A DNA stretch of 64,000 nucleotides from Lingula anatina. Taxonomy: Eukaryota > Animalia > Brachiopoda. The position numbers were made by a program, and so were the translations under genes. The notes under the pieces are model-generated. The model was not told the DNA's origin, searched no databases, and was given only the letters and a program-made list of their open reading frames with translations. Positions 1-59,900 of the stretch are shown one piece after another; position 1 is the stretch's first letter; each line of letters opens with the position of its first letter. The stretch lies in assembly GCA_051362555.1 (NCBI GenBank), contig CM120641.1, forward strand, positions 23,008,401-23,072,400, given 5' to 3'.

Positions 1-98
1 GGGAAACAAGATTAGCACTTGTCGAGTTCTCCGGTGTATCCCAACCTCGGGATGGCAAGTTTTCCTCTAGAGAACCCTCCAATATAACCCAGCCTTGG

Positions 99-116
99 AT
101 TGTCTTAGTTTTTCAC
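99..116 (-). promoter_or_regulatory. Non-tRNA primer-binding-site position GTGAAAAACTAAGACAAT (also 4811-4828 and 9522-9539)
   Basis: Directly abuts the LTR 3' end, lacks the TGG of tRNA PBSs, and is complementary to the spliced LTR junction. Confidence 0.65.
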
Positions 117-177
117 TGTAGCGGACCACGAGTAATTGAAGCAACACCATTGGATAATACTGCCGTTTATTCACGCA

Positions 178-246
178 GTGAACAGAACTGAACAGAATCT
201 GAACAGAAACTGAACAAAAACTGAACAGAAACTGGACAAAACTGGT
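178..246. repeat. Short tandem repeat of about 10 nt (CTGAACAGAA-like, about 6 degenerate copies) in the LTR
   Basis: gtgaacagaa ctgaacagaat ctgaacagaaa ctgaacaaaaa ctgaacagaaa ctggacaaaa; present in all three LTRs. Confidence 0.85.
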
Positions 247-251
247 GAAAA

Positions 252-417
252 CTATAAAAAGAAAAGAAAAAAAAAATTATAATAACAATACAGTGAAATA
301 AAGATAAATAAACTATATATACTAAACAACTTAATTTATGTGATCTTAACAACAAATAATTGATCTTTGCATGTGTGTAAGTTTTTACTATTTATTATTT
401 AATTTTAAAACACTCAC
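252..417 (-). other. Predicted 166-nt GT-AG intron inside the LTR (also at 4964-5129 and 9675-9840)
   Basis: Consensus donor GTGAGT at 417-412, AT-rich interior, and a long pyrimidine tract ending TTTTTATAG at 253-252. Confidence 0.7.
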
Positions 418-937
418 ACTAAGACAATATCCAGACTCGCTTTCTCCGCTAGCAACTGGCTGCTCAGATACGGCCATAGCAATCTGAGCTGGTACTGTAA
501 ATTTATTTGATAACATAAATATACATGTGCGTGTTGGTCATGAAAATGCCACTCCCATACTAACATCAACTTTAATAAACACGATGCTCATAACTTATGT
601 TACTGATTAAACTTAAGTAAACTTATGTAAACTTTTGTAAACTACACAAAATATCTCTATATAAGTGAATTACACTTTATTTAACACAAATTTTACACAA
701 TCTACACGTAATATCGTAACATACCTCCACTCTGCCAGTAAGTATATAAATGACCGCGCAGAGTACATGCAACATCGGCTTTTATACAGTTCATCACATG
801 ACTAGATGAATAGATGTTACTTAATATTGAGCAGTGTTCTAGTGTCTTCTCTAACACAATATAAATAAACATAAGAACAGCGTGGAAAATATAAAATAAA
901 AATGATAACGTATATAATTTCTGCCGTGTCGGCAACA

Positions 938-949
938 CTCCGCATTTTA

Positions 950-992
<43 letters not shown>
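938..992 (-). other. Degenerate PPT (GTAAAATGCGGAG) preceded by a U42 tract (U41 in the second unit, 5663-5703)
   Basis: Lies immediately 5' of the LTR start on the element strand. Confidence 0.6.
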
Positions 993-995
<3 letters not shown>

Positions 996-1062
996 TAACA
1001 TCACATTTGCAATATATATACACTATATGTATGTACACTGAAAGATCATACAATCCACATTT

Positions 1063-4000
1063 TCAAATTGCATTTTTAAACATACAAATATCTGAAGCGT
1101 TGTCATTCCCTTCCAATAAAACAAGTTTTGTGATAGGTCTAGTATACGTGGACGTTTTAGTGCGAATGACTGCACTTCGAATTAAACCATCTCTACCGAC
1201 GTTGGTGCTTTCTACTATGGCCAGAGGCCAAAGTCCACGAGGAATTGATTTGTCTACTTCAAGGACAATGTCACCGACTTTCAAATTCCTCTGAATGCAA
1301 TGCCATTTTGAACGTGCCTGCAGTGTAGGTAAATATTCTCGAGTCCATCTTTTCCAAAATTGAGACACCAGAAATTGGACATGCCTCCACAGCTTTCTGT
1401 AAGTGTCAGCAATATCAAATTTTCCCCATGGATAGGAAGGAATTCCTCTGATTGCTAACAAATGATTTGGTGTGAGCGCATCACAATCATTCATATTCTC
1501 ACTGATTTTAGTAATGGGTCTTCCATTTACTATACACTCACATTCGCACAATACAGTCTGCAAAGACCAATCGGTTAAAGACTTAGCACAGTTTGCCAGC
1601 ACAGCCATCAAAATTTTTCTTATTGTCCGAATCATTCTCTCCCATACACCACCATAATGAGAAGCGTGTGGTGGATTAAAAATCCAATCAATTCCCTTTC
1701 GTCTCATTTCTGACATGATCTTTACTTTGTCTAACTGCCGTAAACATTTGTTCATTTCATTCACCGCCCCTACCAAGTTTGTGCCGTTATCACTGTAAAC
1801 TTTTGTGGGACAACCGCGTCTCGATACGAATCGTATGAAACCGTTGAGAAATGCGCTTGTTTCTAAATTTTCTAACACCTCCAAGTGAATCGCTCTTGTT
1901 TTAAAACACGTGAAAACGCATCCGTAGCGTTTAACTTCTGAGCGACCTACCCTGACTTTGAGAGGTCCAAAAATATCGATTCCAACTACATCAAAGGGGG
2001 GACCTCCTCCAGAACACCTATCACCGGGCAAATCAGCCATTTTTTGAATCATTGGCGACGCATACAAACGCCTACATACAACACACTCTCTTTGTATCTT
2101 TCTCACCAAGTTTCTATCACCCACTATCCAAAATCTTCTTCGTATCACACTTAGAGTCCATTCCGTACCTAAATGTGCACTTTCATGCGCTTCTCGAGCA
2201 ATCAAATTGGAAACAACATGCTTTCTAGGTAAAATCGATGGTTGCTTACACTTCAGTGCAGAATGAATTAGTCTACCACCGACAACTAGTGTGTCATTCT
2301 GAAGGACGGGAGAAAGATCGTGAATTTTACTTGATTTCGAAACTTGGCCTGTTTTGTTTAGAGACTTTAACTCGTGAGAGAAACTGTCTCTTTGTACCGC
2401 CTTGATGATTTCATCTTCCGTGATTTTTAGTTCAGCCGCAGTAATATGCCCTTTGTCTAGCGTCTTTGAGCAAGGGAATTTCTTAAATTTCTTAAGCTTT
2501 GAAACATTGTCTTTGTATGGGTCATACAGGCGTTCATTTGTGAGTTTCCTTTCTAAATTTTGCTGCCCTTTAACGGCCACACACCGATTGTTAGGAAATT
2601 TCGCGCAATTGTCTTTCCACGGGATTGGAAGAACATAATGACCGTCTTTCATGGAAACATTGTTTTCCCATAAACGGAGCACACTTTTGTCTTCATGAGA
2701 CAATTTTGTCCCCTTATCAATACCATCCCAACATCTGCCCTGAATTACATTCACAGACAAATAATTTACAGAGACATGAGGATTGAACGTATCATCTACC
2801 AACCCGTTGATAGTCCACCCTAAACGCGAACGCGCCGCGTATATGCCTGTTGTGCTATTTTCATCAACACGGACTTCTAATGGCATAATCAAATGGGCAT
2901 TATCCATTCCTATGATTATGTCAACTCCCTCTGCAGCAGTGCAGTTACTCAGAGGTATTCCCTTCAAATGCGGGAATGATTCCACATCAATCATGTCATT
3001 TGCTCTCACATTTACGCGAGGAATGACGAAAACATTTGACACGCGGTATTTCACCGACTTATTTTCAATTGGTGACGCGTCAAAAGAAACCACAGGTGAT
3101 CGCGCGCTCCTAGAGCCGTCAATTGTGTTCAAATGATATTCCACGGTGCTTTTAGTGCTGAGCGCTGCAGTGGACACTAAACGCTCCGAAATAAATGATG
3201 AAGTCGACCCACTGTCTAACAACGCTAATGCTTTGTGCACGCCATTTATCATCACTGAAACTATCGGTAGTTTCACGCTTTTGAGCTCGCCCGAATTAAT
3301 ACTGGTGTTCGTAATTTGACTTTGAGATCTGATTCGAGAATCACCGGCACTTTCCGTATGCGCGCGTGGAGGATTTTGCAACCTTGAATTTACATGAATG
3401 AACTTTGAATGTTTTTTACCGCAGCCCGGCACACTACAAACAGCAGGATTTCTGCAGTTACTTGCAAAATGTCCGGCAAACAAACAATTGAAACACAATT
3501 TATTTTGTCTCACAACATTCAAACGTTCTTGCACTCCTTTCTCTTTAAAAGCACTGCACTGAGATAAATGATGTTGACTACCACACAACACACATGGGAA
3601 AATACCATTCTTTTCATTCGTCCTTTGATCAACAGACTGATCACACGGATGACGTACGGGACAGCCATTGATATTCGACCCAATCACGGAGTGTTGGGTA
3701 GAAACAGTAGCAGTTACAAAAGAGTGATTTGACACATTTGCATATACTGACTCACCACCGTACACTGGGTCACTAGCATCTGCAGCAGTTTTTACCATGA
3801 AATCTACAAATTCCTGAAATTTAGGATATCGATCAATTTTGTGTTTGATTTCTAATGCACGCTTTCTCCATCGCTCAACAATCCAACTTTTACACCTACC
3901 CAGAATCTCCAATATGATCTTTTGATTTTCTATCTCACCTTTTAAGTTCAACTTTTCTAATGTTGTACACACAACTTGTAATTCATCAGCTAAACTCTGT

Positions 4001-4677
4001 AAATCTTTCACTTTCATAATCTTTTTACCATTTTTGAGATTTTCAATCAAAGAGCTAGCCACCAAATGATCATTTCCAAAACGGACCTTCAGAATCTGTC
4101 TGGCTTTGGTATAACCCTCCAAGCCCCCAATTAATACGCAATTTTTAATTGCTTCTTTGGCAGAACCAGTTGTAAACTGTATTAATCTGTTTAATTTCAT
4201 CTGAGGGTCTTTCATTTTTGAATCGATCATTTCGTCAAAAACCGTCATAAAATAATGAAAATTTTTGGCGTCTCCTTCAAATTTATCAATTGAGCAATGT
4301 GGGGTGTTTAAAAAAGTAAACAAACTTGCTTCATTGATTAAACTTGTTTCTGATTCATTTGACTTTTGCTTAAGAGAGTTTAAAAAAGTCATACCAAGTT
4401 TGATACCCTTGATTACTTTTTCTTCCACTTCCCGAAACCAATCTTCGCTTGCATCCATCTCTTCCTCGTCCAGATAACTGTGGTATTCATCATGAGCAGC
4501 CTCGAACGAAGAAAACGTCTCTTTCAACTGGTCAACCTTGCTGGCTACCATTTGAGTGTCCTCAGCAGCAACTGCCCTCTCGATGGCACCCAAGCACTTC
4601 GTCACGGCACCTTTTCGCGCCCGTCGTAGTTTTGACAGTCTGTCAATGTCCGGCTTTTCCTCTCCTGAGTCAGTCAT
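1063..4677 (-). CDS. BEL/Pao Gag-protease-integrase polyprotein, RT/RNase H deleted (about 1204 aa from the first ATG)
   Basis: Pao-type Gag (IDKFEGD) with Cys/His knuckles (CVLCGSQHHLSQC, CFNCLFAGHFASNC, CSVPGCGKKH); protease LLDSGS; integrase HHCC (HESAH...CVVC), GIDIFGP, SDNGTN, GVWERMIR; C-terminal LTPNHLL/FWKRW/RPITKL. No YVDD-type RT or DAS-type RNase H motif. The ORF-track start at 4794 is a TTG. Confidence 0.93.
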   Translation of the reverse strand: MTDSGEEKPDIDRLSKLRRARKGAVTKCLGAIERAVAAEDTQMVASKVDQLKETFSSFEAAHDEYHSYLDEEEMDASEDWFREVEEKVIKGIKLGMTFLNSLKQKSNESETSLINEASLFTFLNTPHCSIDKFEGDAKNFHYFMTVFDEMIDSKMKDPQMKLNRLIQFTTGSAKEAIKNCVLIGGLEGYTKARQILKVRFGNDHLVASSLIENLKNGKKIMKVKDLQSLADELQVVCTTLEKLNLKGEIENQKIILEILGRCKSWIVERWRKRALEIKHKIDRYPKFQEFVDFMVKTAADASDPVYGGESVYANVSNHSFVTATVSTQHSVIGSNINGCPVRHPCDQSVDQRTNEKNGIFPCVLCGSQHHLSQCSAFKEKGVQERLNVVRQNKLCFNCLFAGHFASNCRNPAVCSVPGCGKKHSKFIHVNSRLQNPPRAHTESAGDSRIRSQSQITNTSINSGELKSVKLPIVSVMINGVHKALALLDSGSTSSFISERLVSTAALSTKSTVEYHLNTIDGSRSARSPVVSFDASPIENKSVKYRVSNVFVIPRVNVRANDMIDVESFPHLKGIPLSNCTAAEGVDIIIGMDNAHLIMPLEVRVDENSTTGIYAARSRLGWTINGLVDDTFNPHVSVNYLSVNVIQGRCWDGIDKGTKLSHEDKSVLRLWENNVSMKDGHYVLPIPWKDNCAKFPNNRCVAVKGQQNLERKLTNERLYDPYKDNVSKLKKFKKFPCSKTLDKGHITAAELKITEDEIIKAVQRDSFSHELKSLNKTGQVSKSSKIHDLSPVLQNDTLVVGGRLIHSALKCKQPSILPRKHVVSNLIAREAHESAHLGTEWTLSVIRRRFWIVGDRNLVRKIQRECVVCRRLYASPMIQKMADLPGDRCSGGGPPFDVVGIDIFGPLKVRVGRSEVKRYGCVFTCFKTRAIHLEVLENLETSAFLNGFIRFVSRRGCPTKVYSDNGTNLVGAVNEMNKCLRQLDKVKIMSEMRRKGIDWIFNPPHASHYGGVWERMIRTIRKILMAVLANCAKSLTDWSLQTVLCECECIVNGRPITKISENMNDCDALTPNHLLAIRGIPSYPWGKFDIADTYRKLWRHVQFLVSQFWKRWTREYLPTLQARSKWHCIQRNLKVGDIVLEVDKSIPRGLWPLAIVESTNVGRDGLIRSAVIRTKTSTYTRPITKLVLLEGNDNASDICMFKNAI

Positions 4678-4828
4678 GGTCTGGTGTGACGGTGAAACAG
4701 CGTGTACCCTCGGGGAAACAAGATTAGCACTTGTCGAGTTCTCCGGTGTATCCCAACCTCGGGATGGCAAGTTTTCCTCTAGAGAACCCTCCAATATAAC
4801 CCAGCCTTGGATTGTCTTAGTTTTTCAC

Positions 4829-5649
4829 TGTAGCGGACCACGAGTAATTGAAGCAACACCATTGGATAATACTGCCGTTTATTCACGCAGTGAACAGAAC
4901 TGAACAGAATCTGAACAGAAACTGAACAAAAACTGAACAGAAACTGGACAAAACTGGTGAAAACTATAAAAAGAAAAGAAAAAAAAAATTATAATAACAA
5001 TACAGTGAAATAAAGATAAATAAACTATATATACTAAACAACTTAATTTATGTGATCTTAACAACAAATAATTGATCTTTGCATGTGTGTAAGTTTTTAC
5101 TATTTATTATTTAATTTTAAAACACTCACACTAAGACAATATCCAGACTCGCTTTCTCCGCTAGCAACTGGCTGCTCAGATACGGCCATAGCAATCTGAG
5201 CTGGTACTGTAAATTTATTTGATAACATAAATATACATGTGCGTGTTGGTCATGAAAATGCCACTCCCATACTAACATCAACTTTAATAAACACGATGCT
5301 CATAACTTATGTTACTGATTAAACTTAAGTAAACTTATGTAAACTTTTGTAAACTACACAAAATATCTCTATATAAGTGAATTACACTTTATTTAACACA
5401 AATTTTACACAATCTACACGTAATATCGTAACATACCTCCACTCTGCCAGTAAGTATATAAATGACCGCGCAGAGTACATGCAACATCGGCTTTTATACA
5501 GTTCATCACATGACTAGATGAATAGATGTTACTTAATATTGAGCAGTGTTCTAGTGTCTTCTCTAACACAATATAAATAAACATAAGAACAGCGTGGAAA
5601 ATATAAAATAAAAATGATAACGTATATAATTTCTGCCGTGTCGGCAACA
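4829..5649 (-). repeat. LTR copy 2 (shared between units)
   Basis: Matches copy 1 at offset +4712 and has TGT...ACA termini. Confidence 0.85.
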
Positions 5650-5661
5650 CTCCGCATTTTA

Positions 5662-5706
<45 letters not shown>

Positions 5707-5773
5707 TAACATCACATTTGCAATATATATACACTATATGTATGTACACTGAAAGATCATACAATCCACATTT

Positions 5774-8700
5774 TCAAATTGCATTTTTAAACATACAAAT
5801 ATCTGAAGCGTTGTCATTCCCTTCCAATAAAACAAGTTTTGTGATAGGTCTAGTATACGTGGACGTTTTAGTGCGAATGACTGCACTTCGAATTAAACCA
5901 TCTCTACCGACGTTGGTGCTTTCTACTATGGCCAGAGGCCAAAGTCCACGAGGAATTGATTTGTCTACTTCAAGGACAATGTCACCGACTTTCAAATTCC
6001 TCTGAATGCAATGCCATTTTGAACGTGCCTGCAGTGTAGGTAAATATTCTCGAGTCCATCTTTTCCAAAATTGAGACACCAGAAATTGGACATGCCTCCA
6101 CAGCTTTCTGTAAGTGTCAGCAATATCAAATTTTCCCCATGGATAGGAAGGAATTCCTCTGATTGCTAACAAATGATTTGGTGTGAGCGCATCACAATCA
6201 TTCATATTCTCACTGATTTTAGTAATGGGTCTTCCATTTACTATACACTCACATTCGCACAATACAGTCTGCAAAGACCAATCGGTTAAAGACTTAGCAC
6301 AGTTTGCCAGCACAGCCATCAAAATTTTTCTTATTGTCCGAATCATTCTCTCCCATACACCACCATAATGAGAAGCGTGTGGTGGATTAAAAATCCAATC
6401 AATTCCCTTTCGTCTCATTTCTGACATGATCTTTACTTTGTCTAACTGCCGTAAACATTTGTTCATTTCATTCACCGCCCCTACCAAGTTTGTGCCGTTA
6501 TCACTGTAAACTTTTGTGGGACAACCGCGTCTCGATACGAATCGTATGAAACCGTTGAGAAATGCGCTTGTTTCTAAATTTTCTAACACCTCCAAGTGAA
6601 TCGCTCTTGTTTTAAAACACGTGAAAACGCATCCGTAGCGTTTAACTTCTGAGCGACCTACCCTGACTTTGAGAGGTCCAAAAATATCGATTCCAACTAC
6701 ATCAAAGGGGGGACCTCCTCCAGAACACCTATCACCGGGCAAATCAGCCATTTTTTGAATCATTGGCGACGCATACAAACGCCTACATACAACACACTCT
6801 CTTTGTATCTTTCTCACCAAGTTTCTATCACCCACTATCCAAAATCTTCTTCGTATCACACTTAGAGTCCATTCCGTACCTAAATGTGCACTTTCATGCG
6901 CTTCTCGAGCAATCAAATTGGAAACAACATGCTTTCTAGGTAAAATCGATGGTTGCTTACACTTCAGTGCAGAATGAATTAGTCTACCACCGACAACTAG
7001 TGTGTCATTCTGAAGGACGGGAGAAAGATCGTGAATTTTACTTGATTTCGAAACTTGGCCTGTTTTGTTTAGAGACTTTAACTCGTGAGAGAAACTGTCT
7101 CTTTGTACCGCCTTGATGATTTCATCTTCCGTGATTTTTAGTTCAGCCGCAGTAATATGCCCTTTGTCTAGCGTCTTTGAGCAAGGGAATTTCTTAAATT
7201 TCTTAAGCTTTGAAACATTGTCTTTGTATGGGTCATACAGGCGTTCATTTGTGAGTTTCCTTTCTAAATTTTGCTGCCCTTTAACGGCCACACACCGATT
7301 GTTAGGAAATTTCGCGCAATTGTCTTTCCACGGGATTGGAAGAACATAATGACCGTCTTTCATGGAAACATTGTTTTCCCATAAACGGAGCACACTTTTG
7401 TCTTCATGAGACAATTTTGTCCCCTTATCAATACCATCCCAACATCTGCCCTGAATTACATTCACAGACAAATAATTTACAGAGACATGAGGATTGAACG
7501 TATCATCTACCAACCCGTTGATAGTCCACCCTAAACGCGAACGCGCCGCGTATATGCCTGTTGTGCTATTTTCATCAACACGGACTTCTAATGGCATAAT
7601 CAAATGGGCATTATCCATTCCTATGATTATGTCAACTCCCTCTGCAGCAGTGCAGTTACTCAGAGGTATTCCCTTCAAATGCGGGAATGATTCCACATCA
7701 ATCATGTCATTTGCTCTCACATTTACGCGAGGAATGACGAAAACATTTGACACGCGGTATTTCACCGACTTATTTTCAATTGGTGACGCGTCAAAAGAAA
7801 CCACAGGTGATCGCGCGCTCCTAGAGCCGTCAATTGTGTTCAAATGATATTCCACGGTGCTTTTAGTGCTGAGCGCTGCAGTGGACACTAAACGCTCCGA
7901 AATAAATGATGAAGTCGACCCACTGTCTAACAACGCTAATGCTTTGTGCACGCCATTTATCATCACTGAAACTATCGGTAGTTTCACGCTTTTGAGCTCG
8001 CCCGAATTAATACTGGTGTTCGTAATTTGACTTTGAGATCTGATTCGAGAATCACCGGCACTTTCCGTATGCGCGCGTGGAGGATTTTGCAACCTTGAAT
8101 TTACATGAATGAACTTTGAATGTTTTTTACCGCAGCCCGGCACACTACAAACAGCAGGATTTCTGCAGTTACTTGCAAAATGTCCGGCAAACAAACAATT
8201 GAAACACAATTTATTTTGTCTCACAACATTCAAACGTTCTTGCACTCCTTTCTCTTTAAAAGCACTGCACTGAGATAAATGATGTTGACTACCACACAAC
8301 ACACATGGGAAAATACCATTCTTTTCATTCGTCCTTTGATCAACAGACTGATCACACGGATGACGTACGGGACAGCCATTGATATTCGACCCAATCACGG
8401 AGTGTTGGGTAGAAACAGTAGCAGTTACAAAAGAGTGATTTGACACATTTGCATATACTGACTCACCACCGTACACTGGGTCACTAGCATCTGCAGCAGT
8501 TTTTACCATGAAATCTACAAATTCCTGAAATTTAGGATATCGATCAATTTTGTGTTTGATTTCTAATGCACGCTTTCTCCATCGCTCAACAATCCAACTT
8601 TTACACCTACCCAGAATCTCCAATATGATCTTTTGATTTTCTATCTCACCTTTTAAGTTCAACTTTTCTAATGTTGTACACACAACTTGTAATTCATCAG

Positions 8701-9388
8701 CTAAACTCTGTAAATCTTTCACTTTCATAATCTTTTTACCATTTTTGAGATTTTCAATCAAAGAGCTAGCCACCAAATGATCATTTCCAAAACGGACCTT
8801 CAGAATCTGTCTGGCTTTGGTATAACCCTCCAAGCCCCCAATTAATACGCAATTTTTAATTGCTTCTTTGGCAGAACCAGTTGTAAACTGTATTAATCTG
8901 TTTAATTTCATCTGAGGGTCTTTCATTTTTGAATCGATCATTTCGTCAAAAACCGTCATAAAATAATGAAAATTTTTGGCGTCTCCTTCAAATTTATCAA
9001 TTGAGCAATGTGGGGTGTTTAAAAAAGTAAACAAACTTGCTTCATTGATTAAACTTGTTTCTGATTCATTTGACTTTTGCTTAAGAGAGTTTAAAAAAGT
9101 CATACCAAGTTTGATACCCTTGATTACTTTTTCTTCCACTTCCCGAAACCAATCTTCGCTTGCATCCATCTCTTCCTCGTCCAGATAACTGTGGTATTCA
9201 TCATGAGCAGCCTCGAACGAAGAAAACGTCTCTTTCAACTGGTCAACCTTGCTGGCTACCATTTGAGTGTCCTCAGCAGCAACTGCCCTCTCGATGGCAC
9301 CCAAGCACTTCGTCACGGCACCTTTTCGCGCCCGTCGTAGTTTTGACAGTCTGTCAATGTCCGGCTTTTCCTCTCCTGAGTCAGTCAT
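5774..9388 (-). CDS. Second identical copy of the Gag-protease-integrase polyprotein
   Basis: Translation is identical to that of 1063-4677. Confidence 0.93.
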   Translation of the reverse strand: MTDSGEEKPDIDRLSKLRRARKGAVTKCLGAIERAVAAEDTQMVASKVDQLKETFSSFEAAHDEYHSYLDEEEMDASEDWFREVEEKVIKGIKLGMTFLNSLKQKSNESETSLINEASLFTFLNTPHCSIDKFEGDAKNFHYFMTVFDEMIDSKMKDPQMKLNRLIQFTTGSAKEAIKNCVLIGGLEGYTKARQILKVRFGNDHLVASSLIENLKNGKKIMKVKDLQSLADELQVVCTTLEKLNLKGEIENQKIILEILGRCKSWIVERWRKRALEIKHKIDRYPKFQEFVDFMVKTAADASDPVYGGESVYANVSNHSFVTATVSTQHSVIGSNINGCPVRHPCDQSVDQRTNEKNGIFPCVLCGSQHHLSQCSAFKEKGVQERLNVVRQNKLCFNCLFAGHFASNCRNPAVCSVPGCGKKHSKFIHVNSRLQNPPRAHTESAGDSRIRSQSQITNTSINSGELKSVKLPIVSVMINGVHKALALLDSGSTSSFISERLVSTAALSTKSTVEYHLNTIDGSRSARSPVVSFDASPIENKSVKYRVSNVFVIPRVNVRANDMIDVESFPHLKGIPLSNCTAAEGVDIIIGMDNAHLIMPLEVRVDENSTTGIYAARSRLGWTINGLVDDTFNPHVSVNYLSVNVIQGRCWDGIDKGTKLSHEDKSVLRLWENNVSMKDGHYVLPIPWKDNCAKFPNNRCVAVKGQQNLERKLTNERLYDPYKDNVSKLKKFKKFPCSKTLDKGHITAAELKITEDEIIKAVQRDSFSHELKSLNKTGQVSKSSKIHDLSPVLQNDTLVVGGRLIHSALKCKQPSILPRKHVVSNLIAREAHESAHLGTEWTLSVIRRRFWIVGDRNLVRKIQRECVVCRRLYASPMIQKMADLPGDRCSGGGPPFDVVGIDIFGPLKVRVGRSEVKRYGCVFTCFKTRAIHLEVLENLETSAFLNGFIRFVSRRGCPTKVYSDNGTNLVGAVNEMNKCLRQLDKVKIMSEMRRKGIDWIFNPPHASHYGGVWERMIRTIRKILMAVLANCAKSLTDWSLQTVLCECECIVNGRPITKISENMNDCDALTPNHLLAIRGIPSYPWGKFDIADTYRKLWRHVQFLVSQFWKRWTREYLPTLQARSKWHCIQRNLKVGDIVLEVDKSIPRGLWPLAIVESTNVGRDGLIRSAVIRTKTSTYTRPITKLVLLEGNDNASDICMFKNAI

Positions 9389-9539
9389 GGTCTGGTGTGA
9401 CGGTGAAACAGCGTGTACCCTCGGGGAAACAAGATTAGCACTTGTCGAGTTCTCCGGTGTATCCCAACCTCGGGATGGCAAGTTTTCCTCTAGAGAACCC
9501 TCCAATATAACCCAGCCTTGGATTGTCTTAGTTTTTCAC

Positions 9540-10360
9540 TGTAGCGGACCACGAGTAATTGAAGCAACACCATTGGATAATACTGCCGTTTATTCACGCA
9601 GTGAACAGAACTGAACAGAATCTGAACAGAAACTGAACAAAAACTGAACAGAAACTGGACAAAACTGGTGAAAACTATAAAAAGAAAAGAAAAAAAAAAT
9701 TATAATAACAATACAGTGAAATAAAGATAAATAAACTATATATACTAAACAACTTAATTTATGTGATCTTAACAACAAATAATTGATCTTTGCATGTGTG
9801 TAAGTTTTTACTATTTATTATTTAATTTTAAAACACTCACACTAAGACAATATCCAGACTCGCTTTCTCCGCTAGCAACTGGCTGCTCAGATACGGCCAT
9901 AGCAATCTGAGCTGGTACTGTAAATTTATTTGATAACATAAATATACATGTGCGTGTTGGTCATGAAAATGCCACTCCCATACTAACATCAACTTTAATA
10001 AACACGATGCTCATAACTTATGTTACTGATTAAACTTAAGTAAACTTATGTAAACTTTTGTAAACTACACAAAATATCTCTATATAAGTGAATTACACTT
10101 TATTTAACACAAATTTTACACAATCTACACGTAATATCGTAACATACCTCCACTCTGCCAGTAAGTATATAAATGACCGCGCAGAGTACATGCAACATCG
10201 GCTTTTATACAGTTCATCACATGACTAGATGAATAGATGTTACTTAATATTGAGCAGTGTTCTAGTGTCTTCTCTAACACAATATAAATAAACATAAGAA
10301 CAGCGTGGAAAATATAAAATAAAAATGATAACGTATATAATTTCTGCCGTGTCGGCAACA
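9540..10360 (-). repeat. LTR copy 3 (outermost 5' LTR)
   Basis: Matches copy 1 at offset +9423 and is bordered by non-element sequence at 10361. Confidence 0.88.
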
Positions 10361-11079
10361 GTTCCTGACGCCTTTTTGACATTTGACAACCGTTTTGGTG
10401 GGTTTTTCTCTCTTAAAAATTTGCTTACAGCTAGGATAGACGATAATAATTTTGGTCCTAGCTTACAGATAGCCCCCCTACTCCCTTTCGGCCCTTTGAC
10501 CGTAGATAACTGATCAGCATTTTCTGACCAAACTTTCAAATAAGAGGAAACACGTGCTGCGATAAATCATTAAACAATAAGTCTGATTTTAAAGAAGTAA
10601 GACTGATCAAGGATGAGAACAAAGACAAATTGTTTAAGTTTTTAATCGTGCCGTTGAAGCTAAATGGTAGGCCTATATTATCTACAAATCAGCGGATCTA
10701 CAATAAACAACAACAAAAATATGACAATAACCAAATACTTTATTAAAACCTAATTTTCCATGAAAGTTATTCACAGTGGATAGAGGGTTAAAACAGTCTG
10801 ATTAGAATATGTTTTCAGCACATAAACAGCTGGCACATGCACTGGGTGCAATAGGCCTATACCTGTCTGTTGCACAAAGTTGAACTCCCTTGTGCACACT
10901 AGTAATGGATCTCTGTTTCTGTTATGCCTTTAAGTGGAAGTTGTAGACCAACGTCAACAGCATATCCCAAATTCTGCATTATTTATAAAAAAAATTCATT
11001 GCATTTAAGCTTTATCTGACAGAATTTAGTCACCAATAACTTGCAGCCGCTGCCATTTCTCTGTATGTGTGTCTGCACG

Positions 11080-13948: not shown

Positions 13949-14665
13949 CAAAGTCACAGTCACCTCAACCTGTCTATCTATAACAGGGCATCGAGAACTG
14001 TCAATTTTGTTAACTTCACTCCATCACATTTACAGCGACTTATTCATCCTAGTGTTAGCTGACCTTGCAAGGAAGTTTATTGGAATGTATTTCTGAATAA
14101 CAAGTTAAGAAAATTCACGAGTTCACTAAAGACACAAAACAATTGTCACTTTTACTTTAAAACATTTTTTATTATTTTGATAAAGTTAGTTACAGTATTG
14201 ATAAACAAAGTATCACGTTTTCAATAATTAATATTTTAAATAACAATTCATGTCTTGCATCACGACGATCAACGTTGATTTTATGTTGAATTTAGGTAGA
14301 TCAATTGCATTTCAACGTATCAACCTGTTTTCAACGTTGACCCAACGTCACCATGCCTGCTGGGGAGGGAATTGAATTGAAATGAATTTTATTTTCCATT
14401 AAGTTTTGGCCATTTGTATCAAATGAAAAGGAAAAACGGCCATTTTTTCATTTTCTGACGGCCTCAAACGTCACCAAAATTGTGCAAAAAACAGAATTAT
14501 TACCGTAAATGTGACTCGTTCGTGCGGATTTTCAATAGCAACCTGTCTCTTTGCCAAACAAAGCTACTCAGAGATTTTAAAAGTAAACAAAAATATGGTT
14601 TGGTAGTTATGGGGCAAACGTCACCAAAATTGTGAAAAAAAATTAAATGTCAGTGTCTGTATATG

Positions 14666-15650
14666 AAACAAGGCAGCAAAGCTGTCAAATGTACAGACAA
14701 AAAGCAGACAATAACAATGCACAAAATAGGCTACTGTCAATTCTGATGCGAAAGTAAATTATGCTTAACTGCAAATTCAACATCAAATTTTAATTATGCT
14801 CAACAGGTAATACTGACGTAAGTAAAATGTGTAACAAGCATAAGGCTTCAGGCCAATGGGAGTTCAAGTTCACACTTTGAAAATGCCAGAATGAGAAAAA
14901 TGAAAATTTCACACAAAACTGCATAAATTCAATAATAAATGATAACCCTATTGAGCTGTTTTTCTAATTTGAACTGCATGCCAATCCTAAAAATCATACT
15001 TGTAAGTTAAAAATAATTATAAGTAATACAGTTTTCTTTTCATAATGTTTGTAGTAGCAGTGCAAAAAGATTTTTGCCAATTTTGATGTAACATTACATA
15101 ATAAATAACAGAATAATTATCACCAATTTTTGATAATTGACTATAAATAGTATGGAAATGTAGAAAACTTGATTACCATTCAGCTTCATGTCCATGGGAG
15201 CTCTGAGTCCCACAATGAATATGCCAAAACGATAATAATGAATATTTCACTAAAAACTTCCAGAAAAAGAAGCCAATTAGACTGCTTTTCCAGCTCAGGC
15301 CACATTTTAGTCCCGTGTTTCTTTTTTGAAAGTTTGACAGTCATAAGTAACATGGTTTTCCCATAATGGTCATCATGGCAACAGCACCAAAAATTGTATT
15401 TTCTTCTATTTTGATGCAACATTACATAATGCTTAACAGCATAATGACCATCAATTTTTAATAATAAAATAAAACCTATCATGGATTTTCAGAAAATGTG
15501 ACTAGCATGGGTCTTCAAGCCCGTGGAGGTTCTAAGTCACACCTTGAAAATGCCAATATGTGAAAAATTAAATTTTCACAAAAAACTGTTTAATTGCCAG
15601 AAAATCTGTGTCTGTACATAAAAAGGGACACCATCTCTAGTGTTGTGCTT
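14666..15650 (+). repeat. Interspersed repeat beginning AAACAAG with internal degenerate subrepeats (family shared with 23412-24230; fragment near 25765)
   Basis: aagctgtcaaa.gtacagacaaaaagcaga.aataa..atgcacaaaatagg at 14679 and 23426; recurring cacac.ttgaaaatgcca...gaaaaat.aaa.tttca units. The right boundary is approximate. Confidence 0.65.
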
Positions 15651-16030: not shown

Positions 16031-18238
16031 ATGGCTGAGGCAAGTGAGAACAAGCAGGCAGCAAAGAAAGTTGAGAACAGTTTGATTGCTATGACTAAAG
16101 GGGAGAGCAACACCAATCTCAATATGGAACTTGTAATGAGATCTTATGCAAACTGGGAACATTTCCTGACCCCAGCCCCAATGTCAATTGCCATGTTAGG
16201 GGAGCTGATGATAATAGCAAGTGAGACCGACTTCTCCCTGGCCAAAAATCCTCCAACAGAAGGTTTTCAACACATGAAGCATCCTTCATCTTTTCGTGCC
16301 TCATTATTACAAGTATCCAATGCTGCTTATGTGGCATTTGACCAGGCTAATTCCAGTATGGACCAGATTCGTATCCGAACATTAGCAATCCCTTCTGATG
16401 TTAAGAATGCCTTGAAGATCATCATAGCAGGTGAAAATAATGAGATCAAAAGCATTGTGCCCAGGAAACTTGTCAGGATTAAAGAGTCAGCGGATAATTG
16501 TCTACAGTTGGCAAAAGAAACAGAGTCGAAGTTTCAGAGTGTGATGTTGCTGATAGCTGAAATCCTGGAGGCATGCACAAAAACCCAGGGCGAAAATGAC
16601 CAGGAGGTGGCAACCGCTCTAACTACCATAAAATTTTTGAAAGAAAGGGTGGAAAGATATCAACAAGAACAACAAAATGAACAGAAAGACCTGCAAGAAC
16701 TGAAAGAAGAGGTCCGAAAAGCCCACAAGCAGATAGAAGCTGCCATGGATGGGATGCCCTCTGCTTGGGAAACCTTGGGAATGTCTGTCATTTCGGCAGT
16801 TACCACTGGTCTTGTACATAAGTTTACCGGGATGTTAGGGTGTGTAGCAACTGCAACAGCTCAGTTACAAACACAGATAATTGAAAGTGCAAAAGAATTT
16901 GCTAATTCCAGCCAAGATTCTACTCTGAACCCTGATCAGGCCCAGCCAACAACACCCGTACAAAAGGCTAATAGTAATGTATTCGGGAAATGTTCAGAAA
17001 TATTAAAGTTTGCTGAAATCCTTAGTGATTTCATCATCAAAATGAAATCAGGCAATGAGCAGGAGACTAAGCTCAAGCTCTCGCAATATATACAAGACAC
17101 TGAAAAAGGTTCAAAGTATGTGCAGCTTCAATTCAACGCCCTTAGAGAAGAAGTGGAGAGGGAAATTGATGCTGATGAAGGAGTCAGAGGTCCTGCCATC
17201 GAAATATGTACGACAGGAGTAGAAATTGCCCAGGATCTTACCAAACTCAATGGTGAAATGAACCAACATCAAAATGAGATCGAAGAAATCAGGGGACGAG
17301 TGAAAAAGCTAATTAAAGAGGCGCAATTGTTTCAAACACGTGCAATGAAATGGCTTAAAGTTCCTCCATTTCCTTCCACCACACCACAACATGCTGTTGC
17401 ACAAGAGAAGTGTGCCTTGTCTGCAGGGCAAGATGTCTCGATTGCATTCACTGAGACTGCACGTTTTAAGACAGAACAGGCAATAAGTCTTCTAAAGAAT
17501 GCTGAAGAACGGCATGACAAAATGGCTAAAGAAATGAGGGAAAAAAATGAGGCTATCATGAATTTGATGCAGGAAATGTCAAAGCAAGATGTACGTAGGC
17601 TGGACTTGGACACCATCCGATCCACTCTATCGCGTGGAATGACTTCTTTGGCAAGAATAAGGGACCAATGGGCAAAGCTTGTAGAGTTCTTCAAAATGAT
17701 GTCCCATATAATGGAATGCGCTCTAACAGAATCCCTTGAAAAGTTCACCATCACTGTGGATGGAAAATGTGAAGACAAAACAGCGGGCCCTTTGACCCTT
17801 TCCCAGGCTGTCCGTGATGTGTTATTTGAAGAGGCTTACATGGCCATCAAGATCAGTCACCTGGTCAACATGCTGTCCACCACATATTGTGAGGTTTCAA
17901 AGGACCACATCATGGGTCGTATTGGGGTCCTCTACCATATCGTGGCAATGGACCCAAAATACCAGTTAGAAGATATGAAACATCAGCAAAAACAACTTCT
18001 TCATGGTTGTCAGGAAGCTCAGAGGAAGATCCAAGAGCTTGCTTGCTCCAATGCTGAGGAGTTTCATGCCACCATCCAAGGAAGAATAAATCGTATTGAG
18101 CATGAAGTCAACGCTTTGCTGCCTCCCCCAGCAACCCCCGAAGCAGCTGCTGCTATAGAGCAGAAGAGAGTTGAAATCAAGGAAGTCATTGCAAGAGCTG
18201 ACCAGGAAGAAGATCAAAATGTAACTGAATGGTTGTAA
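16031..18238 (+). CDS. Uncharacterised 735-aa all-alpha/coiled-coil protein (zgc:162509-like family; possible ClyA/Hbl-type pore-forming fold)
   Basis: Long uninterrupted ORF with a splice acceptor (ttttaatttctttatag) directly before the ATG. N-terminal YANWEHFLTPAPMSIAMLGEL...HPSSFRASLLQV motif recalled from this family. A central hydrophobic segment lies between coiled coils. Confidence 0.85.
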   Translation: MAEASENKQAAKKVENSLIAMTKGESNTNLNMELVMRSYANWEHFLTPAPMSIAMLGELMIIASETDFSLAKNPPTEGFQHMKHPSSFRASLLQVSNAAYVAFDQANSSMDQIRIRTLAIPSDVKNALKIIIAGENNEIKSIVPRKLVRIKESADNCLQLAKETESKFQSVMLLIAEILEACTKTQGENDQEVATALTTIKFLKERVERYQQEQQNEQKDLQELKEEVRKAHKQIEAAMDGMPSAWETLGMSVISAVTTGLVHKFTGMLGCVATATAQLQTQIIESAKEFANSSQDSTLNPDQAQPTTPVQKANSNVFGKCSEILKFAEILSDFIIKMKSGNEQETKLKLSQYIQDTEKGSKYVQLQFNALREEVEREIDADEGVRGPAIEICTTGVEIAQDLTKLNGEMNQHQNEIEEIRGRVKKLIKEAQLFQTRAMKWLKVPPFPSTTPQHAVAQEKCALSAGQDVSIAFTETARFKTEQAISLLKNAEERHDKMAKEMREKNEAIMNLMQEMSKQDVRRLDLDTIRSTLSRGMTSLARIRDQWAKLVEFFKMMSHIMECALTESLEKFTITVDGKCEDKTAGPLTLSQAVRDVLFEEAYMAIKISHLVNMLSTTYCEVSKDHIMGRIGVLYHIVAMDPKYQLEDMKHQQKQLLHGCQEAQRKIQELACSNAEEFHATIQGRINRIEHEVNALLPPPATPEAAAAIEQKRVEIKEVIARADQEEDQNVTEWL

Positions 18239-27702: not shown

Positions 27703-40836
<13,134 letters not shown>

Positions 40837-42291
40837 TCATAACAAATGAACATGCTGTAAGTGTTGGAAGTGGACAAGATAAGGACCTGCTTGTGTTGCC
40901 TGTGCCTCAAACAAATAAAAAAAACCTTGAAAAAATGCAGTATTTTGTGCATTTTTCAATATTTGTATATTTGGGTATGCTTTTGTATTATCAAATACTT
41001 AAGACAGTCCCATGGTTTTTGTAATGATAATCAGTAGGGCATGAAGTCATTTTCATGATATTTATGTTGGTTTCTCAGTGAATCAGGGGAGAATGCTGAT
41101 AAGTCCTCCCTTCCCTCACTCTTTTTATTTATTTATTGTATTTTTTCTGTATGTCAACAACAGCCCAAACTTTTTTTAATAAAACGAAACAAATACATGC
41201 TTGTTTTGGCCTTTGGGCGTCTTTTTTCCTCATGCAGAATTCACCCCTTTGTCCTAGAAAGGGAAGGGGAGCTCAAAGGGTTTATAATTATATCATGTCA
41301 AACAATAACAGAGAGTCAGAATTTTGTTGTGAGAAATTAAGAATGGAACGATTCCTGTTTGGGACTTCTGTCAGTTGTTGACATTATTTATACAAGGTTT
41401 AAGATCAAAAATCTTTTAGGCATTATTTCTAAATAATTCAGTTGGTTTGGGGATACAGAACTAACAACATACCTATAATTTGGTTGTCCTTTTTTTCCTC
41501 CAAATAAACCTGAGACGGGGAAAAAATTTTAACATACAGGAATGTTTTTCACATTAGGAAAAAAATTGAGGATCAACATATTGCCTTTTGGTAGATTGAA
41601 AGAGTGTAAATAGCTGTTGTGATTTGCTTTCACATAAAAATACCTATTTTGCAGGCATTATATTTTGGTAAAGTTTTGCTCTGTATGCAAAGAGAATATC
41701 TTTATGGCTCTGTACACAAATTTGCAGTCTTATAATGTTGATCTGCAGTAACTTACTGTTATATTACAATATTCATATATTGAATAGCCTTTAGTAGCTT
41801 TTTTCTCCTTTAAGAAAAAAATCACTACTACTCTTAGAAAAAGATATTGCACTATTTTTGTTGCAGCTACTAAGATAAAAGTTGCAAGTATTATATTGTA
41901 ACACTAAATGAAATAAATGGTGCAATGCCATCGAGTCCATTGGCTCAAAAGAGGGGCACAGGAAGAGAATATCTAGATGTCAACTTTTGTTATTGTTAAC
42001 ATGGACAGACCTGTGCATTGGGGAGGTACCCTGCTTTATTTGATTTACAGAGTTTAAATATCAAAACTGTCAATGATAGTCTCAGTTCAGGCATGTGTTC
42101 ATCTCTGGGATATATGTTTTCACTTTTTGGTAGATAGTGCTTTTGATGCTCTTAAATATAATTTTTCTTTCCACAAATCGTAATAATTAACAGATTTATT
42201 TTGACCTGTATTGGAGTGCAATCAAGCTAAATGATTACATTGCTGGGCATTGGATTATTTTGGTTATGCTCTCAAGAGCTCCCAATGTATA

Positions 42292-53900: not shown

Positions 53901-56900
53901 ATCTTCTTGGTGGCTGTCAATTTCTGAGGCAACTAACTCTAAAAATTCCATCATAATTTCAGAATCTGTAAAAACATGGAACATTTATTAATGTTTGTTT
54001 GAAAAACCAATCAGAGACTCAGTGAATATATGTCACTCATCTCAACTTTCATTTACATCCCTTAATTCTTTAAACCGTAATATTTTAAACTACCTACGTG
54101 TATTTGTTTGTATACGTAATCAATTATTCCTCTTCATTAAAGATTTGTGCTCCATCTCTTTCAACTGAAACTACTTTCATTCGATGAAAATGTAATGTCA
54201 GTCAAAATAATTTTGAATATTACCAGAATTTCTGTGCTCCTCCATGAATATATCCAAAAACTGTTGACCAGGGTCCTGCCCAACAAACAGTGGTGCCGTC
54301 TGGAGGCTTGTTTTACCATTTCTGATGATGATATCCTTTATCACAGTGACAAAGCTCAGGTAGCTCTCCTGAAAGACAGATCAAAAATAAAGATATTCCA
54401 GTCTTGAAAAAAATTTAGGGCCACGTAGAAATAAGACATAAGTAACTGATGCATATGCAGTACTCTTTAAATACACAAGTCTTGTGAAATGTTGGCATTT
54501 CATTTTAGATCTAAAATCTAAATGTATGTCTGACATATTATTATTATTATTTTTGTAAACAAACACATGCATTAATTAGGCCCTAATTCTAGTAATTCAA
54601 ATGTTTGTTTGTTTTTATTAAAATTTCATCAGAACAGGGCAACAGCAAGAGTACATTTGTATTTCATGTATTCTTCATTGATACATGTATGAAGAAAGCA
54701 GTCATCTTGTTTTGATAAAGTGTACTAATCAAAAATAAATGCAATTATCTTCTTTTGATAAAGAGTGCTTTTCAAAAATGCAATAAGTACAACTACAAGA
54801 AAAATGTACTATTGTTTAGAATGCTTCTCAGACATGCTCCATAAAACCATTAGTGGGTTAGACTGAGCACCAGCTCCATCCAGGGAAAACATTTCAAGTG
54901 AAATAAGGTACTTATAAATCAACCATCAGGAAGAAAGAAATTACATATCAACCATTATGTGGAAAGCAATGGAAATTTGAAGAAAAGTTAAATGACAGTC
55001 ACAGCACTGACACTCGATTCTTGATGGACTTTGGATAATGAAGTGAGGGAAGGGACAAAAAAATAGACCTGCAACTTTTGCCCCCCTCCCCTCCCCCCAA
55101 AATAAAAAAAAAATCTGCTTTAATGTACAAATGATGTGCCTTTAAGTACTTGAGAGGAGCCTATACGTTTTATCTGAGTTTGCATTCACAATCAACAAAA
55201 ATGCCAATAAAAAACTTCTTGCTAGCATTTTGAGATTATTCATTGGTGCTAAATCATGTTTTGTATGTGTAGGTATTGCACAGAGGCAATTCTCAAAGGC
55301 TATTTGTTACTTAATGTTCATAAATACTGCACAGTCTATCTTGCATTGCTTTTCATTAAATAAGATCATTAATTATTTTTGACTTGCTGCAGGTCTTGAG
55401 CATGTCTGCGTGAATTTTTAGGGAACGTAAAGGAAAAATAATGGAATGTGTTCCTCTCCTGAGGACATCACAATATAATGCCATATGCTCCCTACTGAAT
55501 TTGAAACAAGTCTTGCATATGGCACACAAAGTACTTATCAAACTATTTAGGTTATATAATATTCATATTTTCAAATCCATTTACCACTCCTTGTCTCAAA
55601 TTGGTCAGTTATATTCTCTCTATGAAAATATCAAATCTTTATAGTCTTTGAATCATTTGGTACCCTATATACACAGAACATAAGCTTCGCCATAGACACC
55701 TCACCCACAAAATCATATAAGAGTACCCTAGATAAGGCACTGTAACAAAGTAAAAACATCATTCCTATTGAAGGCAAATCAATATCTAGATTCCCTGCGG
55801 CTTATGCTTCATTACACAATTATCTCAGCCATCTGTTCTGGGAACTGAGGTTGTTCAGAGTTAGGTTAATGTATGTATATATGCCAGTATTGATTCTGGG
55901 TTTGCTACAAAGATCAATAAAACACAGCTTCCAGACACGCGCAAAGAGAAATTACATCAAGAACAAAGACATTAACTTCAGTCAGGTCCGAGATTAGATC
56001 CTGATGTGATCTAGGATATTTTTTGTCTTTGAACTCTATCTGCTCAGTGTGACAGACAGACACGAAGAGGATGAGAGACTTATTACTGCTACTAAAATAG
56101 AGAAAACCCAAGATAGCATTATCATTGTGAGCTTTTTTCAGAGGTGACTTCAAGAGTTCTTCCATTAACAAAAACAATAACAACAGTTATTTGGATTTTA
56201 TATTTACATAACTGAACAACACTGGGGGAAATGGAATCTGGAAATATGTGTGTTATATATCTTTTGTTCAGTTTAAGCAGTATTTCCCAGATATTTTGCT
56301 TTCAAGACAGATATCCAATACCAAGGGGCAAGTTTGTTCCAGAATCCCCTCTGAAAGATGATGGGTTGACAATATTAGACTGTGGCCTGACAGTCACAGA
56401 GTTGTCAGCCATGAAGATGGAAAAGTATATCTTTATTGATAGAGCAGACATTATCTACTTAACCCTAAACTTTCCCCCAGGGACTAAAATGGACACGGAT
56501 GTTTCCATTATGGTGGAGCTGAACAAGTGGATCTGGGTGGAAAATCACTCTGGGAAGCCAATGCTGGAGATGGACTTCAGGTTTGCAGCATATTCTCTGA
56601 ATACTTTATCTTTGCATACTAAAAATTTGGAACTGGACATTACATTGCACCCGCCATTGTGTCTGAATACACTCAAACTTGAGCATAAGATTTTACTCAT
56701 CAAAACAACAGTCAGAGGTATATTAGGGAAAAATTCTACCATCAAGTCATCCTTGTGTTATTCCCGCCTTGCGCCATATCAGCAGGCAGCAGATAGTTTC
56801 TACTTCCAGCACAAATGCTGTGACTTGGCCCAGCAAGACAAATATGACAGTGTAAATATCACCCACTCTGGTTTCGGCTACTGCGAGTACCTGTTGTTAG

Positions 56901-59900
56901 AAATAGGTGGGTTGTATATGACACTGCTGTACACCCTGATATTCCTGGTGAGCCCATTGGCCATCAGCCTGCTTCCCACAGAGGAACAGGTGTATACTGT
57001 GAACAGACTTGGGAGGATCGCTAACCTGAGAGAACCTTGCTACAAATATAAAAGAATGGACTCTGTGGGACATAACATGAAGGGTAAATGTGTCCCCAAA
57101 GAGTTGATATGTGGAAGACCAATGAGTGTAACTTTAGAAAGTCCACAGAGTCCTCCAGTTCTACAAAGCAATGGTGTTGAGGGCACTGAAGTTGCAGGCG
57201 TGGCTGCAGATGTTTTGACAGATCAAAATTGTCCAGGACAAAATGATGGCGTAAGGCAGCAAGACCAAGAGCCCATACATCAAAATGACCAGCTGCAAGT
57301 ACTCCCGAGGCAGAAACACGTCAGGTTGTCCATAGAAGGTGAAGACACCACATTGCCCCCTGGTGACCAAGATGTCTGCCCGAGTTCTATGGGGAGTACG
57401 ACAACCCAGCACCACATTTGCTTAACACTAGAGGAGCCCCTGCATAGTGAGAGGATTGGTAACAGGTCCACTGACGCCTCACCAACTGATCAAATGACAA
57501 AATCATCAAACTGCCATGTCAAGAAAAGAAACACTGTTGTCATTCTCAGCAATGCTGATGAAGCCGTCACCATCACTGAAGATGTAGCTGTGGAGGAGAG
57601 TGATAATCTTCAAAATCAAACTCTGGACAGAGCTGCTGGAGCTCAGAATCAGCATCATCTGGCAAGAAATGATGAGCAGCCTGAGGAAGAGCAATGTGGG
57701 TGCCCAAGCCACTATATTCCCCTGAACTCCTCCACCCCAGTTCGCATCTCTCATCCATTCAGTTACCTCTTTCTGATGCATGTAAGAAGTAGCTGGGTTT
57801 GTCGCCTTAGGAGGCTGGTGTTTTTCCTGGTGATATACCCCAGTGTTGTGTACGCTGTCATTGCAGTGGATTTCCTAATGTATCACAGTGATATCAAACT
57901 GAGGGAAAAATTAGAAACTAATCTCAGCATCTTTGGAAAGATAGCAGATTTTGACTATTTTGATCATTACTTAAATGCCAACTCCTACACTGAGCCATCT
58001 TTCATGGTTGGGCTTCTCTATCTTGTGATGTATGTTATAATGTCATTCTTCAGTGCCATAGAAGGCAGTCTTACATCAATGGTGGATCAACTGATGGTGA
58101 ACAACAAACACCTTGGTGTGCTGCGGCTCCCTGACTGCTTACACATACCGGAGAGGGAGCTTCACACTATAGAGAAAATGTATCACAAAATGGCATTCCG
58201 TTTATCACTCATTGCGGATCCAAGATTCTGGAAATTTTGGGTTTTGGAAATCAAGGAGATCTTGTTTAGCTGTTCAGGCAAATCCACCAAAGAAATTTTG
58301 GTCAAACCATTCAAATTATTGATGTGTTTCGTGTCCCTGGCATTCCTGTTTCCTTTGGTCAACTGTCTCCCCTGGGAATACTTAGTAACTATGGTAACAG
58401 ACCAGGCAGAGGCTAACAGACTGATCAGCTACTGTAAAACTAGATACAAGAACTTTGGAAAAGGATTCTTATTTCTAATTGGTGGAAGCATCACTGTGCT
58501 GGGTCTTATGTTTGCCCACCTGATATTCATAAAAACATGCCAGAAACTAACCCTGGTTGTTCTGTACACCATAAAAGGCATTGTGAAATACTATGCTGAT
58601 ATACTTCCCATCCTGACCATCATTTTGGTAGGGGCCTACTATGTCTTCAGTACCTTCTACAAACTAGATGAAAAATACAGGTCAGTCAAAAAGATGATAT
58701 TTGAGGAATGTGAGAAAGAATGGGAAAATCAAAGAATTAAGGCAGAAGAAGCAAACAAACCACCCCTAGCTCAGTCCCTGGTAGTGTATAGAAAAGATGG
58801 TATTCCCATGATTCCCAGAGCTCTGTATAAAATCATAATTGACAAACATGTGCCTGTGCGTGAAGCAGAACTCCCTGCCCTAGCTAAACTGATACTGATA
58901 GCTTTATTTCTCTCATATGTGGCTGAAATTGTGGATGTTTTCAGTATTCACAACATCACTGGGTTGGGACATGCGGTGGCCACATTTTTTGCTGCTACCC
59001 TACCAAAGCTGCTCGATTTCCTACACTCCAAGAGTAGTATTGAAGAAGAGTGTCTAAAACACAAAATAAGAGCCACAATTAAAGATTACTATCAAACAAA
59101 TCTTGTCATCACTGAAGAAGAACTACTGAACCACACGAATAACAATATCCTCCTTGACAATGAAGGGTTTCCCAGGGAAACGTTTGTGTAATTGTCTGCC
59201 TAGGTGATATGGTTTCTGGCCAGCATATTTTATGCCATAAAATGTTATACATGTTTTCCAGAGTGAGCTGTACATGTACAAGGCACAACATATAAAACTG
59301 CACATTAACATATTAATTTGAAAGAATTAAAATTCAATCATGAACATCTCTTCAATTTTATTTCAATGATTCAGGCTAAAATTCACAAAAGATGATGAAA
59401 TAATTTGCTGTGCATGTGACATGAGTCAACTGTTGGCAAAAAAACAGTTCACTCTATTCAATTCAGCATAAAAGCCACTTCAAGCTATTGAATTATGAAT
59501 AGTCACTTACAAGTCAAGATCATCGAATTGTGAAAAAAGTATGAATCACTACATCAATATTTCACATGCTATTAGTTGGCTTTAGATTTGATATCTTTAC
59601 ATCTATGAGTTCTCATCAGATCATACGCATTGTGCACATCCATAAAAGTGCAACCAAATGTGAAGCTGTGATTAAAGCTTTGGCCAATTGTTACTTGAGT
59701 TAATGAGTACAATTTCATGTACAAATTAGACTGTGTATCTAAATAAACATTAGTTCATTTGCTTCTATCTCTGTAATTTTTTCCTAGATTACTTATGAAG
59801 TAATTTTGTATGAGAGCCTGTCTAATGGCAGGAATATTTTTAGAAATGCTTGCATAAACAATCTTACATCTAAAGATGTGGCATCCTAGGTTTAAAAGAT

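Follow-up and report, generated by a model that had tools for sequence, protein, structure and literature searches.

A BEL/Pao derivative of Lingula anatina that carries Gag, protease and integrase in one open frame and lacks reverse transcriptase and RNase H

The initial 10.4 kb of the window (the whole stretch of DNA analysed here, 64,000 nucleotides of Lingula anatina contig CM120641.1) are occupied on the minus strand by a head-to-tail array of a single LTR retrotransposon type, the units of which share their LTRs and encode Gag, protease and integrase in one uninterrupted frame that lacks reverse transcriptase (RT) and RNase H. The element is a derivative of BEL/Pao (Belpaoviridae) rather than a complete member of this group, and without RT and RNase H it cannot be autonomous. 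We consider it probable that it belongs to a small semi-autonomous BEL family that would depend on an intact BEL helper for the RT by which it is copied. The array and its parts are laid out as follows:

1..116, minus strand: leader of a third internal domain that exits the window, so that the array comprises at least three units
117..937, minus strand: LTR common to copy 1 and the further unit, displaced by 4712 relative to the LTR at 4829-5649
938..991, minus strand: T-tract of about 40 nt and purine-leaning stretch before the 3' LTR, at the position of a polypurine tract (PPT); also at 5650-5702
952-991 and 5663-5702: sense-strand T-tract, about 40 nt long, directly in front of the PPT position
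1063..4677, minus strand: Gag-protease-integrase ORF, copy 1, 1204 aa, without RT or RNase H
2478..2495, plus strand: perfect 9-bp tandem ATTTCTTAA at the junction
2493..2496, minus strand: in-frame junction L728/K729, at which the pre-RT segment meets the RNase H-integrase linker (from the alignment to P0098)
4811..4828, minus strand: post-LTR site without a TGG tRNA primer-binding start; its part 4811-4821 (11 nt) is complementary to LTR positions 5130-5140
4829..5649, minus strand: LTR common to copy 2 and copy 1
5774..9388, minus strand: Gag-protease-integrase ORF, copy 2, protein the same as in copy 1
7189..7207, minus strand: the same junction and tandem in copy 2, with the join at 7207/7204
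9540..10360, minus strand: the array's outer 5' LTR, 821 bp long with TG...CA ends and with loose ends at 9540 and 10360
from about 10361: host flank beyond the outer 5' LTR

When positions 1-5649 are compared with positions 4713-10360, the sole difference is one A in a homopolymer. The two junctions in the window therefore represent one event and are not independent of each other. The earlier note had placed the same junction at about 7180-7230, and it is indeed present there, but it cannot serve as a second observation. The LTRs are 821 bp long and possess the TG...CA ends of BEL/Pao LTRs; their limits were set by the loose ends of contigs from other sequencing runs, at 9540 and 10360, together with a matching end motif in RT-bearing relatives. 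The array likely arose after the deletion by LTR-LTR recombination, a process that does not require transposition. In the accessible part of a study on Cassandra, head-to-tail arrays of LTR and internal domain are attributed to recombination (PMC7215508). Elsewhere in the window, two long stop-to-stop frames are present on the plus strand, one of 991 aa at 56216-59191 without a Pfam match under E 0.05 or a usable Atlas match, and one of 735 aa at 16031-18238 with only weak, sub-threshold Pfam matches. The window furthermore contains a diverged local duplication (33173-35841 and 38485-41677, spacing about 5.3-6.1 kb, blocks of 76-88% identity) and, at 14660-15585, three copies of a repeat about 335 bp long.

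The ORF runs from 4677 to 1063 on the minus strand, encodes 1204 aa free of stops and frameshifts and is repeated at 9388-5774. Its Pfam matches are DUF1759, aspartyl protease, Integrase_H2C2 and DUF5641, the last of these at the C-terminus as in BEL/Pao; the same scan, which the earlier note had proposed, returned no match to RVT_1 or Peptidase_A17 in the ORF at E<=0.1. A motif check along the alignment identified the protease LLDSG, three Gag Cys/His knuckles and the HHCC and D, D, E residues of the integrase, and found YxDD and the RNase H motifs absent from the ORF. The claim that Gag, protease and integrase are intact in an element devoid of RT and RNase H is thus borne out. DUF1759 combined with three Cys/His knuckles is the Gag make-up of BEL/Pao; the order PR-RT-RH-IN of this group is not present, and a single ORF with the protease before the integrase and without RT and RNase H is found instead. 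The absence of an essential enzyme next to an intact partial ORF is one of the features of semi-autonomous LTR families, and the element has it. In a tree of integrase sequences, which contains no non-BEL outgroup, the element is nested among RT-bearing BEL proteins as sister to a Lingula protein with 96-100% support. The exact 1204-aa protein had no match in a collection of 15 billion proteins, and viral contigs yielded no relative of the element.

The nearest RT-bearing database relative is P0098/P0242 from Lingula anatina, the integrase of which is 72% identical to that of the element. Measured against P0098, about 543 codons are missing, so that RT and RNase H are gone in their entirety, together with the first helix of the following linker. 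A profile of 60 full-length relatives is matched by the element at positions 5-712 and 1254-1721 only, and homologues align nearly always in two blocks with some 530-560 residues of their own in between (best 120 of 912 homologues), P0119 and P0025 being the exceptions. The precise in-frame loss of RT and RNase H described in the earlier note is confirmed, as the join at 2496/2493 introduces neither a stop nor a frameshift. Its statement that the frame jumps to the post-RNase H linker holds in so far as the linker is reached in frame, but the deletion extends further than had been noticed, since the conserved Y/FSSYYRL..AV.WL helix in the RNase H-integrase linker is lost as well.

The junction is marked by the tandem ATTTCTTAA, the sole perfect tandem of at least nine bases in the ORF. 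Tandems of this kind occurred in two of 100 shuffled ORFs and once in 47.7 kb of natural BEL coding DNA, a rarity that ties the 9-bp repeat to the junction. The earlier note had regarded the tandem as a possible microhomology. A microhomology-mediated deletion leaves a single copy of the repeat. Here, two copies are present and they align almost wholly to the linker on the integrase side; we have therefore rejected microhomology-mediated deletion at this repeat, and duplication at the joining fits better. The tandem is likely a short duplication that would have formed when the break was joined, by repair synthesis or by a template switch of RT.

Parts of the element were found as contigs in ten public runs from four studies, none of which is recorded as RNA, a listing that says nothing about expression; four of the runs were compared with the window over positions 5710-11000. 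In run X1, which may be close to the source of the window, contig 1 covers 5710-7490 including the junction without a single difference; the junction is therefore not an error of the present assembly. Contig 18 of run X5, from another study, crosses the junction over 7096-7380 without gaps and differs from the window at 28 of 285 bases (90% identity). It has more than 100 bases on either side of the junction and exhibits the same deletion of the same length in a copy that is diverged by about 10%, from which it follows that the junction is older than the array; this bridge is provided by a single 285-base contig in one of the four runs. No loose end lies at the junction among the 24 listed (of 214). 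In run X9, the alignment of the main integrase-side contig (contig 25, 98.9% identical) ends at 7182 with 43 letters left over (7182-7225), which could reflect a full-length parent or another junction. The 5' ends of the LTR run on into several flanks that differ from one another (two contigs each in X1 and X2, seven in X9), and in all four runs the depth of the LTR is several times that of the interior, contig depth not being taken as copy number. Solo LTRs or families sharing this LTR are therefore dispersed. Further loose ends, at 7626 (three runs) and, in X9, at 6606, 6643 and 7570, point to more diverged relatives in the same host as candidate helpers. A diverged relative that skips 7431-8836, about 1.4 kb of gag and protease, is present in X2, X5 and X9, that is in three runs from three studies.

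Among the best-supported 40 of 393 differences between copies, 21 fall inside the ORF. Eleven of these 21 listed differences are synonymous and ten are replacing, and none creates a stop. By chance, 22-29% would be synonymous (binomial p 0.002-0.02), and pN/pS amounts to 0.27-0.40 for the 21 listed differences; the integrase side alone contributes three synonymous and three replacing ones. The compared copies may include RT-bearing parents, and the synonymous excess would then be that of the parent. The lean towards synonymous change is weak evidence of selection on the ORF.

The start of the internal domain does not resemble that of a typical BEL/Pao element in that no TGG start of a tRNA primer-binding site follows the 5' LTR. 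The junction ACA-GT(A/G)AAA found in its place is common to the RT-bearing relatives L031, L037, L045, L056, L057, L061, L065, L066 and others, and the missing TGG start is therefore a trait of the lineage. No tRNA gene is present in the window. The LTR's end and the bases following it can pair with the LTR interior in two nested inverted repeats of 11 and 10 nt (4811-4832, 5001-5010, 5130-5140). An 11-nt match arose in 45 of 2000 shuffled LTRs and both matches together in none of 2000; complements of 9-11 nt also occur in a few RT-bearing relatives. We take the nested repeats at 4811-4832 to recall self-priming of the Tf1 type, to which the fit is inexact, as the 11-nt arm of the element begins 7 nt from the LTR end. 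No report of self-priming in BEL/Pao was found in the literature searched.

Forms without RT are not confined to this lineage. Our searches, which were built to enrich forms with protease and integrase, collected 78 metagenome loci, of which 52 carry the protease/pre-RT region and the integrase in order. One of these 52, L005 (325-5043, on a metagenome contig with 22x coverage by its name), is a BEL element lacking RT and RNase H in one unbroken Gag-PR-IN frame of 1561 aa from the first Met, with intact-looking motifs and a different junction (profile position 682 to 1170); L027 is a decayed case of partial loss. Database proteins add the following junctions in profile positions:

P0119, RT/RNase H-less database protein: 681 to 1239
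P0209, RT/RNase H-less database protein: 686 to 1277
P0157/P0251, two gene models of Ruditapes philippinarum on different contigs, 97.8% identical: 741 to 1177 in both
P0253, Mytilus edulis: 758 to 1205 (P0169 is its C-terminal part on the same contig and is counted once)

BEL ORFs devoid of RT and RNase H and with other junctions thus exist in at least four more lineages, one of them (L005) checked in DNA. The database proteins, five of the six other RT-less proteins, may be exon skips of gene models or haplotigs. The integrase tree has 38 rows, and each RT-less row is accompanied in it by its seven closest RT-bearing proteins, chosen among 159 (P0209 is present twice). In this tree, the seven RT-less rows need six label changes, five of which are forced by well-supported branches. 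This argues that the RT-less form arises repeatedly. A single RT-less clade of four proteins, seen in a first tree, dissolved after the nearest RT-bearing relatives had been added. BEL proteins also exhibit deletions of RNase H only (P0025 and P0245) and further in-frame internal deletions. Since the searches enriched forms with protease and integrase and RNase H-only deletions exist, we make no claim about frequency beyond the one in 52. The recurrence may simply reflect how often BEL elements suffer deletions. A search for short relatives centred on Gag and protease gave four matches, none of which lacked RT and RNase H. It is a tentative proposal, and one we hold to fall short of an even chance, that BEL/Pao elements with only Gag, protease and integrase constitute a recurrent, selected class of animal retrotransposons with at least five independent origins, which would parasitise only the RT and RNase H of a helper and, by using their own integrase, would be free from matching the LTR ends of the helper.

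For the Lingula element itself, the semi-autonomous reading draws on observed features, namely the architecture, the intact motifs and LTRs, the presence of the junction in DNA data obtained independently, and the copy that is diverged by 10% and shares this junction. BEL elements produce one Gag-Pol polyprotein, so that a shortened polyprotein would be expected to assemble together with full-length polyproteins of a helper. In the proposed cycle, the shortened polyprotein would take up its own RNA in cis and form particles jointly with a smaller number of full-length helper polyproteins supplying RT and RNase H. These helper enzymes would make the cDNA, the particle would be matured by the protease of the element, and insertion would fall to the element's own integrase, the possession of which would loosen the need for LTR ends shared with the helper. 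Alternatively, still within the semi-autonomous reading, the frame might be kept solely for the stability and packaging of an RNA that is translated from end to end, with the integrase as a passive passenger. A close full-length parent may be present in the host. The idea of the earlier note, a non-autonomous family borrowing RT and RNase H, is partly supported, namely by the 90%-identical contig with the shared junction, by the synonymous lean and by the recurrence of the architecture.

The main competitor, which we regard as rather unlikely and nonetheless take seriously, is a single old in-frame deletion in an ordinary BEL copy that has been dead ever since and was multiplied solely by LTR-LTR unequal exchange or segmental duplication, its frame being open by chance (one in three) and youth. 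It would account for tandem units that differ by one base only, the RT-less form was not seen at any other insertion site, contig 25 of X9 departs from the window at 7182, and in-frame internal deletions occur in other BEL proteins. It accords poorly, however, with the gapless presence of the same junction in the 90%-identical contig, since a dead frame of 3.6 kb should gather stops at such divergence, whereas the 21 listed differences include no stop and 11 synonymous changes; nor does any of the 24 listed loose ends (of 214) fall on the junction. Much less probable is movement without reverse transcription, in which LTR-LTR recombination would release from the array DNA circles that re-enter the genome by recombination or by means of the element's own integrase. 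The shared-LTR tandem array and the intact integrase are compatible with such a route, but retroviral-type integrases act on the ends of linear cDNA and the retention of Gag and protease would be left unexplained. Arrays with shared LTRs, moreover, form in non-coding elements too, as the accessible part of the Cassandra study describes (PMC7215508). That the ORF is a host-domesticated Gag-protease-integrase gene with a cellular role is extremely unlikely: an intact frame with a synonymous lean would be expected of such a gene, but complete LTRs, a tandem arrangement, the occurrence of several haplotypes and, in three studies, a further derivative without 1.4 kb of gag-protease would not. We attach equally little weight to an assembly error by which a full-length element had two of its parts fused. 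The flawless match between the tandem units could indeed stem from an over-collapsed or duplicated assembly, but separately assembled contigs from two studies cross the junction.

If the semi-autonomous reading is true, RT and RNase H can be shared in trans within mixed particles even where Gag and Pol form one polyprotein, and the family opens the question whether integrase works in cis. Such families would be overlooked by surveys and classifications of LTR elements that are based on RT. Should the element be no more than a dead deletion copy, it is ordinary.

No report of a BEL family that lacks RT and RNase H and keeps integrase was found in the literature searched, most subscription journals and Repbase lying outside the search, and the accessible parts of PMC3286476, PMC6238403 and PMC12440569 contain nothing on such a family. 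With BEL/Pao elements, the nearest being P0098/P0242 of Lingula anatina, the element shares the single ORF, the DUF1759 Gag with three knuckles, the protease, the HHCC-DDE integrase, DUF5641 and TG...CA LTRs; it differs from them in lacking RT and RNase H as well as a portion of the RNase H-integrase linker. The division of labour, called unusual in the earlier note, is indeed so, but there are known semi-autonomous elements in which an in-frame ORF is retained, as the available portions of the respective studies on IAP 1-delta-1 and Sabrina make clear, and it is the Gag-protease-integrase form for which we found no report. According to the accessible text on mouse IAP 1-delta-1, the fusion ORF of that element acts in cis and helps retrotransposition, with Gag and Pol provided in trans (PMC6466679). 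An internal deletion, an in-frame gag-pol fusion ORF and non-autonomy are common to both elements (PMC6466679, in the same part). IAP 1-delta-1, however, lacks a portion of gag and depends on Gag as well as Pol in trans, whereas the Lingula element seems to have Gag, protease and integrase in full and is predicted to borrow RT and RNase H only. RLG_Sabrina_SA, RLG_WHAM, RLG_Quinta and RLC_Giselle from wheat and barley are described in the accessible parts of PMC9744471, PMC11302176 and PMC5738225 as having kept Gag or Gag-protease and as needing an autonomous partner; they lack integrase as well as RT, in contrast to the element studied here, which keeps its integrase. Cassandra, a TRIM, resembles it in forming head-to-tail arrays and differs in being a plant element without coding capacity, as far as the available part of the source states (PMC7215508).
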